From Escherichia phage MX01: a DNA stretch of 64,000 nt. How positions within the stretch are numbered: position 1 is the stretch's first letter; each line of letters begins with the position of its first letter. A program made the position numbers and the translations under genes. The notes under the pieces were generated by a model, which saw nothing but the letters and a program-made list of their open reading frames with translations, was not told the DNA's origin and did no database searches. The stretch lies in sequence record NC_031934.1; one strand, 5' to 3'. Shown here one piece after another: positions 14,870-16,265 of the stretch.

Positions 14870-15649
14870 TTAATTAAAAATATATACTTCGTCTGTTCCA
14901 TTCTTTTCTTTTGAATGGTGGATATTAAAGACATATTTTTTATTTAGATGCTTGACAGTATATTTTTTAGACCATTCTTTAAGAATGGTGTTTTCTTTTC
15001 CGTGGTGTTCCAGGACATTGGATAATCCAAATTTTATACCTTTGGAATCAAGAGAATCTAAAAGATTTAAAAGGTCTTTTTCTTCATCCTCAGACCAAAA
15101 CTTATTATAATCGGCCGACGTTATTAGGTAAGGAGGGTCTACATAAACAAAGTCGCCTTTCAAGATTTCTATATCTTTATAAGAGCCGGAATAAAAAGTT
15201 ATCTTAGAATGGTTTTGTTTGAAGGTGTCAAATCTTTTCTTGGTATTGGAATTCAGAGTTCTTTTACCGAACGGAGCATTAAAAATACCGTTAGGATTAA
15301 TCCTGATAATATTACTAAATGAATGCATATGCAATACATATAGTAATAATGGGGATTTTGATTTATTATAATCTTCTCTTAATTTAAGGAAGGCGTCTTT
15401 ATCTGTATCATTTAAATTATATTTGGATATCACACACAAAACATCAGCCCATGAAAAGGTCCTCATAGACTCATACATTTCTATAATTTCTTTTTGAATA
15501 TCATTAGAAATCACAGGGCCTTTTACATTTAAAGATACAGACAACCCACCACAAAAAAGGTCTACAAATCTTGAGTATTCTGGGAATAATGGAATAAGGT
15601 CTTTAAGTAAAGACTGCTTATTCCCTGTGTAAGCAATAGCTCCTAACAT
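14870..15649 (-). CDS. dam: DNA adenine (N6) methyltransferase Dam
   Basis: 259 aa; FCGGLSV and DPPY motifs; strong similarity to recalled T4 Dam; AT-rich segment. Confidence 0.9.
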
Positions 15650-16209
15650 TATAATCTCTCTTTAACGGCGTCAAAGAACATTTCAAAAAGTTCTTTATCA
15701 TAGGTATCAGATAATAATACTAACACATCCTGGTCTTCAGCAAATTCATTGAAGCGGGTTTGAGTAGAAGCCATTTCTACAAATGTTTCCTTTTTATCCC
15801 ATGTACCGTTTTTATATATTCCACATGGGAGAAAATCCAAGACCATTATAGATACAGGATTTCCGGTTCCGGTATATTCTTTTAATTTTTCCATATCTTC
15901 TAAATAGATACCTACCGAATCTATAGCGGTGCCACCGCCGGTTTGGTGTTTGATTTCTATTATATGCTTTTTATTATTTTTTTCTATAACAATATCAAAT
16001 CTTCTTTTTCTTGGTTTGTGTTTAAATTTAGTAGTAAAAAGGTTTTTAGACTGATTCTTAGAATCAACCAACGCATAATTTTCTTGGTAACTTACTTTAT
16101 AATCACAAAAATATTCCTTTACACAATTAAAAATAAATTCTTCTACTATAGAAGATATTTTATAGGAATTTCCTGCTAAATGCATATCTCTTACAATTTC
16201 GTTAATCAT
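15649..16209 (-). CDS. PD-(D/E)xK nuclease-like protein, 186 aa, translationally coupled to dam
   Basis: FDIVIEK ... IIEIKHQ resembles D...ExK catalytic motif; TAATG overlap with dam start; GGAG SD; AT-rich. Confidence 0.65.
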
Positions 16210-16236
16210 TTTTAATCTCCAGTAGTTGATAGGTCT

Positions 16237-16265
16237 ATAGTATCATATCTACCTGGGATGTAAAC
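16237..16265 (-). promoter_or_regulatory. early promoter (GTTTAC-N17-TGATACTAT)
   Basis: Canonical cassette upstream of the PD-(D/E)xK-like gene/dam. Confidence 0.65.

Follow-up and report, generated by a model that had tools for sequence, protein, structure and literature searches.

The deoxyribonucleic acid (DNA) of T-even phages is shielded by modified cytosine and their dam gene is treated as encoding an orphan methylase, the benefit of which to the phage has, to our knowledge, never been clear for the classic enzymes of T2 and T4. Is this methylase an orphan at all? In Escherichia phage MX01 (NC_031934.1) dam (14870..15649, minus strand), encoding an N6-adenine (GATC) DNA methyltransferase of the Dam family with 259 amino acids (aa), is directly preceded by an open reading frame (ORF) for a protein of 186 aa, ORF186 (15649..16209, minus strand). 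We analysed a stretch of 64,000 nucleotides (nt) containing this locus, here called the window, which is a segment of a T4-type phage genome with genes on the minus strand. The initial annotation of this DNA had proposed a nuclease of the PD-(D/E)xK type being translationally coupled to Dam in a restriction-modification (R-M)-like module. Our data suggest ORF186 very probably being a functional PD-(D/E)xK nuclease that is functionally tied to Dam, and they suggest an R-M-like cassette as the home, or the origin, of the Dam that textbooks describe as an orphan in T-even phages.

Does ORF186 have the fold and the active site of a nuclease? The AlphaFold2 model, based on an 8-sequence alignment, was obtained with a pLDDT of 82.9 and a pTM of 0.81 and shows the secondary structure elements in the order helix, three strands, helix, strand, i.e. 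the core alpha-beta-beta-beta-alpha-beta fold is present. The best neighbours of the model in the PDB are type II restriction enzymes, with the top match and most of the others being sequence-specific, so that structure prediction confidently supports the proposed PD-(D/E)xK fold. ORF186 is structurally closest to MunI (MunI/EcoRI-class type IIP restriction endonucleases, PDB 1d02), and CRISPR ancillary nucleases are also found among the neighbours. The D...ExK motif read from the sequence is formed by F71-D72-I-V-I-E-K and I-I-E85-I-K87-H-Q, the codons of the catalytic core being located within 15949..15996 on the minus strand (D72 15994-15996, E85 15955-15957, K87 15949-15951). The spacing by itself is not beyond chance. 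We regard the motif as real because D72, E85 and K87, together with the glutamate E23 (16141-16143, minus strand), are invariant in nine of nine aligned family members, down to 28% identity, and because these residues are placed in the model on the expected helix and strands: the first long helix carries E23, strand 2 carries D72, and strand 3 carries both E85 and K87. The stretch KHQxxxGTAIDS following strand 3 is also invariant in the nine sequences. Compared to 64%-identical Tequatrovirus homologues, the ratio of non-synonymous to synonymous substitution rates (dN/dS) of ORF186 amounts to 0.19-0.21 over the whole length, with dS being near saturation; for dam, the pairwise dN/dS is approximately 0.10. 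Based on the fold, the invariant motif and the low dN/dS, ORF186 is a real gene under purifying selection with a complete catalytic motif. PHROGs assigns it to phrog_8706 of unknown function, NCBIfam gave no match, and PDB sequence searches, whether with ORF186 alone or with the family profile, resulted in nothing usable, the sole match, OMP decarboxylase (E-value 0.06), being spurious.

Is the association with dam a particular feature of MX01? ORF186 belongs to a very small family, members of which are present in 154 phage records, mostly of Tequatrovirus including T2 and furthermore of Klebsiella Jiaodaviruses, and 153 of the 154 copies cover at least 80% of ORF186; Dam is found in 499 phage records. 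The family scan revealed one locus in IMG/VR and three in JGI metagenomes but zero loci in GTDB (185,579 species genomes of bacteria and archaea), and a bacterial source family for ORF186 was dropped as a candidate in view of this empty scan. A hidden Markov model search of 1.84 billion representative proteins gave ten matches, all being family members or fragments thereof except for P0014, a 765-aa repeat protein that we consider a spurious match. Our literature search found no paper on a T-even gene of the ORF186 type. Ten lineages were examined, i.e. the window, Tequatrovirus, T2, Jiaodavirus and the contigs L004, L005, L009, L015, L016 and L018, and in all ten the ORF186 homologue is located immediately 5' of the Dam/D12 gene. 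The junction is a 1-nt overlap in the window, in the intact Tequatrovirus copies and in L015 and L018; the genes abut in L016, overlap by 7 nt in Jiaodavirus (L010), by 20 nt in L005 and by 35 nt in L004, and are separated by a 13-nt gap in T2. Both proteins diverge in parallel, the nuclease/Dam identities to the window pair being 64/76, 45/60, 37/58 and approximately 30/55%.

The pair occurs at no fewer than three genomic positions: between genes 61 and 56 (window, Tequatrovirus, L015, L016), between genes for a denB-like endonuclease IV and an ndd-like nucleoid-disruption protein (Jiaodavirus; Klebsiella phage Shinkou, L010 2314-5296), and directly upstream of rIIA (metagenomic contig L005). 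In Jiaodavirus it is thus placed among host-DNA destruction functions. At every locus the GC content of the cassette is 4-10 points below that of its own flanks. The three loci, the low GC content relative to the flanks, the lasting adjacency and the co-divergence show the pair behaving as a mobile two-gene cassette, the parts of which need each other. These data bear directly on an alternative in which ORF186 would be a catalytically active DNase of the PD-(D/E)xK type that is not specific for GATC, either non-specific or structure-specific, acting in host-DNA breakdown or in recombination and repair, with dam being merely co-mobilised. We consider this alternative possible though doubtful, as chance co-mobilisation leaves the overlap or abutment in ten lineages (down to 28% identity), the presence at three loci and the co-divergence unexplained, and as sequence-specific type II restriction endonucleases make up the top structural match and most of the rest.

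How did the cassette come into the window? The locus is flanked by the genes for the dCTPase gp56 (14291-14806, minus strand) and the primase gp61 (16498-17526, minus strand), and the interval between these holds two ORFs, ORF186 and dam. The flanks are 79-97% identical to the Dhakavirus phages JS98 and IME08 (BLASTN). Alignment of the window with the loci of both phages shows this homology ending at 14851 and picking up again at 16271-16273, which, together with the junction alignment and the GC content, delimits an inserted island at 14852..16272 (minus strand) comprising the cassette and its own putative promoter. The island has 1421 base pairs (bp) and replaces 18 bp of JS98. Its GC content is 0.303 compared to 0.391 for the window, which is practically the lowest value of all 1421-bp stretches in the 64 kb, with only 0.24% of equal-length windows being as low; the visibly AT-rich segment described initially is thereby borne out by windowed GC values. 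The block is absent from all of the approximately 28 closest relatives (Dhakavirus) in the phage collection, which cover only approximately 60% of a 3.6-kb query spanning the island, and the best DNA match to the island in this collection is 72%. Taken together, the island is foreign to the Dhakavirus backbone. The junction alignment revealed neither a target-site duplication nor clear repeats at its ends. In IME08 and AnYang, exactly the site of the cassette is occupied by a gene for an HNH homing endonuclease ('mobE'; IME08 = L003, 1816-2472), and for this reason we regard the 56-61 intergenic site as an insertion hotspot. The initial annotation had placed ORF186 in the variable 61.x region of T4; this placement does not hold, since the gene is located between gene 61 and dam and not among 61.1-61.5, which are on the opposite side of gene 61. 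There is also no orthology to a characterised T4 61.x protein (61.1, 61.2, Sp, 61.4, Dmd), T4 having no homologue of ORF186.

Is the methylase of the cassette functional and directed to GATC? The dam product matches PF02086 with an E-value of 6e-38 and TIGR00571 with 200.8 bits (cut-off 114.85). It is 75% identical to T4 Dam in a gapless alignment, keeping FxGxG and DPPY as well as S112, R116, P126 and R130, which we take to be DNA contacts in the T4 Dam structure. Judged by these features the window Dam is intact, and its GATC specificity is a safe inference from T4 Dam. Compared with the T4 and T2 enzymes (75-76% identity) it has equal length and the same position relative to gene 56. The difference concerns the gene ahead: in T4 the methylase gene stands alone after a 309-bp gap, whereas the window and approximately 150 sequenced Tequatroviruses have the nuclease-fold gene in front of it.

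Which sequence would the nuclease recognise? The only restriction endonuclease-type profile matches of ORF186 are models of DpnII, a GATC cutter that is methylation-sensitive, i.e. blocked by N6-methyladenine (m6A). ORF186 matches Pfam DpnII (PF04556) with an E-value of 9e-4 and 19.0 bits (gathering threshold 23 bits), and five of nine family members match this profile, the best with an E-value of 8.3e-5. With the PADLOC model PDLC03548 ORF186 scores 24 bits (E-value 5e-6). PDLC03548 represents DpnII, as a database protein 99% identical to our DpnII probe sequence reaches 420 bits with it. The probe is a full-length DpnII family member by Pfam (335.7 bits), the database also gave a named S. 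pneumoniae DpnII fragment, and the DpnII alignments were built from database sequences. Comparison of the ORF186 family with 17 database DpnII-family proteins by hhalign gave an E-value of 4e-4 and a probability of 35% over 81 columns, both alignments being of low diversity. In the resulting register E23, D72 and E85 are placed on the invariant DpnII residues E152, D201 and E214 and the Gly-rich loops are aligned, while K87 is opposite to an invariant DpnII Asn (N216). The aligned core consists of the helix Glu, the strand-2 Asp and the strand-3 Glu followed by the Gly-rich loop, the DpnII side reading KRFDFVI..YLIEVNFYSGSGSKLN.

The match is confined to the C-terminal catalytic half of DpnII, covering positions 154-232 of the 278 positions of the PF04556 profile, and ORF186 begins where the catalytic domain of DpnII begins. 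Many PDB neighbours of ORF186, namely BstEII, NgoMIV, Can2, VC1899, AF1548 and BsoBI, but not MunI, are also found for a model of DpnII, the pLDDT of which is 69 overall and 80-90 for the catalytic half. By sequence, the DpnII catalytic core is the closest to ORF186, which is probably a distant relative of it. By curated criteria, i.e. score and the full-length architecture of approximately 280 aa, ORF186 is not a member of the DpnII family. In one GenBank record, that of phage Shinka (MZ502379), the homologue is labelled 'putative DpnII restriction endonuclease', and the other homologue records examined read 'hypothetical protein' or are evidently misannotated. The DpnII/MboI family (PF04556) resembles the ORF186 pair in that the partner methylase DpnM likewise belongs to the Dam/D12 class and has GATC as its recognition sequence. 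It differs in size (288 aa for DpnII compared to 186 aa), in gene order, the ORF186 pair being arranged as R then M with overlapping genes, and in that this pair is found only in T4-type phage DNA.

The same profile searches bear on the suggestion, made initially as an alternative, of ORF186 being an anti-defence factor. Here the nuclease fold would be reused to degrade or sequester a component or signal of host immunity, in line with an early gene in a variable accessory locus and with the CRISPR ancillary nucleases among the structural neighbours. We found no positive support for it: there is no match to known anti-defence families, the sole PADLOC match is the restriction enzyme model, and the obligate dam linkage would be unexplained, making this alternative extremely unlikely.

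How could the two proteins work together? Our data are compatible with a model that takes the island for a mobile type II R-M-like cassette of two genes in T4-type phages, with the nuclease cutting GATC lacking m6A. One early transcript would carry ORF186 followed by dam, and both proteins would be made together by translational coupling. ORF186 would be a Mg2+-dependent, probably dimeric, type IIP-like enzyme which, by analogy to its distant relative DpnII and by R-M logic, may cut GATC without N6-methyladenine. Dam would methylate GATC and thereby shield the phage's own replicating DNA. Likely targets would be un- or under-Dam-methylated DNA in the infected cell, such as superinfecting phages that are dam-less or under-methylated, plasmids or hosts without Dam. 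The tight R-M linkage could allow the pair to propagate and maintain itself as a selfish element at variable T-even loci and, upon loss of the nuclease as in T4, Dam would remain as an 'orphan' methylase. The R-M-like module proposed in the initial annotation gains support from the conserved nuclease-dam adjacency, from the profile matches being restricted to DpnII and from the mobile low-GC unit. As in a type II R-M system, the genes for the endonuclease-fold protein and the methyltransferase lie side by side and are passed on together, in ten lineages and at three loci.

Several observations weigh against this model. The known host range (E. coli, Shigella, Yersinia, Klebsiella) consists of Dam+ bacteria, so that the host chromosome would be protected from a methylation-sensitive GATC cutter. 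The modified cytosine of T-even DNA already provides a shield, and the window encodes a gp56 dCTPase; moreover, this phage has almost no GATC to protect, with 9 sites in 64 kb. The DpnII similarity is below the Pfam cut-off (19 vs 23 bits) with the hhalign probability being just 35%, ORF186 has no counterpart of the N-terminal part of DpnII comprising approximately 140 residues, and it shows a canonical ExK (Lys) where DpnII has ExN (Asn). The order R before M and the absence of a controller protein are atypical for establishing a classical R-M system, the nuclease is dispensable, as shown below by T4, by a 61-aa remnant and by a 3'-truncated copy in T2, and its activity and specificity are predictions. 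Because the Dam+ hosts, the modified cytosine and the few GATC sites leave the target not obvious, we give the full R-M-like reading about an even chance.

The closest functional precedent of a lytic virus having its own GATC R-M pair is CviAI of the chlorovirus PBCV-1, in which the early-expressed GATC m6A methylase M.CviAI (A581R) is paired with the viral restriction enzyme A579L (PMC7248222). PBCV-1 is a eukaryotic algal virus, and an exhaustive profile search detected no sequence relation between CviAI and ORF186. The restriction enzymes of chloroviruses are believed to be directed at the DNA of the host; unlike in this case, the host DNA of MX01 is already Dam-methylated. ORF186 is set apart from DpnII, MunI and CviAI by its small size, by having been found only in T4-type phage DNA, by the overlap of R followed by M and by its location beside the classical T-even Dam.

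Does the phage genome itself bear marks of a GATC-directed nuclease? GATC occurs 9 times in the 64-kb window (4593, 18443, 22743, 33675, 41300, 46326, 56070, 61158 and 61636) vs approximately 215 sites expected from a second-order Markov model (ratio 0.04, z-score -14), and no other 4-bp palindrome in the window has a ratio under 0.78. JS98, having neither dam nor the nuclease, contains 6 GATC vs 170 expected in 50 kb. As JS98 is equally depleted without both genes, we conclude the depletion being a trait of the Dhakavirus backbone and not of the cassette. Tequatrovirus loci show a milder depletion, with ratios of approximately 0.3-0.45. GATC avoidance in enterophages is an old observation, reportedly made by McClelland in 1985 and by Deschavanne and Radman in 1991. 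In our literature search we found no paper noting GATC depletion for JS98-type phages. The depletion suggests GATC-directed nucleases being a real selective force on these phages, and with GATC so scarce, a GATC cutter encoded by the window phage would pose hardly any danger to the phage.

This depletion also has to be considered for a DpnI-like activity. According to this alternative, the nuclease would cut Dam-methylated GATC in cytosine DNA, i.e. that of the host and of Dam+ competitors, and Dam would complete the methylation, with the phage escaping owing to its modified cytosines and the near-absence of GATC in the window backbone. It would provide an obvious target in Dam+ hosts, and the 9 GATC sites in the window as well as denB and ndd as neighbours of the cassette in Jiaodavirus would be in agreement with it. 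Yet in Pfam and PADLOC ORF186 resembles neither the DpnI family nor winged-helix m6A readers, its sequence points to the methylation-sensitive DpnII, JS98 is depleted in GATC as well without carrying the cassette, and the cassette-bearing Tequatroviruses keep many GATC sites, T2 DNA being known to carry m6A. We judge this joint reading, escape by modified cytosine and GATC scarcity included, to be distinctly unlikely.

The pair might also act as an offensive weapon in phage-phage or phage-host conflict and not as a classical defence, which we consider rather unlikely. In a first version, an early GATC endonuclease would destroy co-infecting T-even relatives without Dam, and the GATC purge of the dam-less Dhakaviruses (JS98, 6 vs 170) would be the evolutionary scar of such attacks. 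In a second version, Dam would 'paint' cytosine DNA and the nuclease would cut the painted sites. Either version, if true, would explain the puzzling role of the T-even Dam as one half of a nuclease-methylase pair.

Why, then, is Dam found alone in T4? T4 has dam and no nuclease homologue, a 309-bp gap being left between 61 and dam (L012 3127-3435), and is simply a deletion derivative. In KarlGJung only a 61-aa C-terminal remnant of the nuclease is left (L011 2001-2186), and the T2 copy (L002 3501-4046) has a 3' frameshift resulting in an early end, altered last residues and loss of the dam overlap. Laboratory as well as wild Tequatroviruses thus make up a decay series of the nuclease gene. 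The loss in T4, the remnant in KarlGJung, the truncation in T2 and the 499 records with Dam vs 154 with the nuclease show the nuclease being dispensable and repeatedly lost, leaving an 'orphan' Dam. The same losses, and the same excess of Dam records, would fit ORF186 being a decaying or catalytically silent remnant of a restriction gene, retained because it binds DNA or regulates as a partner of Dam, or simply because it is an upstream ORF delivering ribosomes to dam. We regard this as highly unlikely, since the family shows no variation at the four catalytic residues, dN/dS is approximately 0.2 over the whole length and 153 of the 154 phage copies span at least 80% of the protein.

In the R-M-like reading, the T-even Dam is reframed as part of a cassette, by which the old question of its purpose becomes testable: across approximately 150 sequenced T-even phages, and also in divergent relatives from metagenomes, a conserved and selectively maintained gene with a restriction-enzyme fold lies ahead of dam and is coupled to it. 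If true, this would be a rare case of a strictly lytic phage having its own restriction-type nuclease, and ORF186 would, with its 186 aa, be a very small candidate endonuclease of the GATC family.

How is the pair expressed? The sequence bears out ORF186 and dam as initially described, including their TAATG stop/start overlap (15647..15651, minus strand): positions 15647-15651 read c-a-t-t-a on the plus strand, with the ORF186 stop and the dam start sharing one base. A GGAG Shine-Dalgarno sequence (16217..16220, minus strand) is located 7 nt 5' of the ORF186 ATG. Concerning the canonical early promoter claimed for the pair, a matching T4-early-type promoter-like site is present at 16237..16264 (minus strand), consisting of (G)TTTACA, a 16-nt spacer and TACTAT with a TGn extended -10 (9/12 matches plus TG). 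In our scan, promoter-like sites are not more numerous than in shuffled sequence, and the terminator scan likewise gave no excess over the shuffled expectation. We therefore regard an early promoter ahead of ORF186 as plausible only.

The head of the island with this promoter region (16206-16273) is 80% identical over approximately 70 nt to the region upstream of sp (spackle) in JS98 (L001 4963-5033), a likeness fitting shared early-promoter modules, which might mediate cassette shuffling. The best sigma-70-like match of the region (TAGAAA, 16 nt, TATAAT; 10/12) is located within ORF186 at 15959-15986 (minus strand), facing dam, and could be an internal promoter or a by-product of AT-rich coding, the number of such sites not being above the shuffled count. 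Just outside the island, an ORF for a hydrophobic protein of 66 aa (16301-16501, plus strand) converges on the primase gene, overlapping the end of this gene by 4 nt, and matches phrog_2024 of unknown function with an E-value of 5e-28. This ORF is annotated in T2 and KarlGJung ('similar to RB69ORF029w') and is present in contig L015 as well, whereas in JS98 and IME08 it is unannotated despite the DNA being 95-97% identical.

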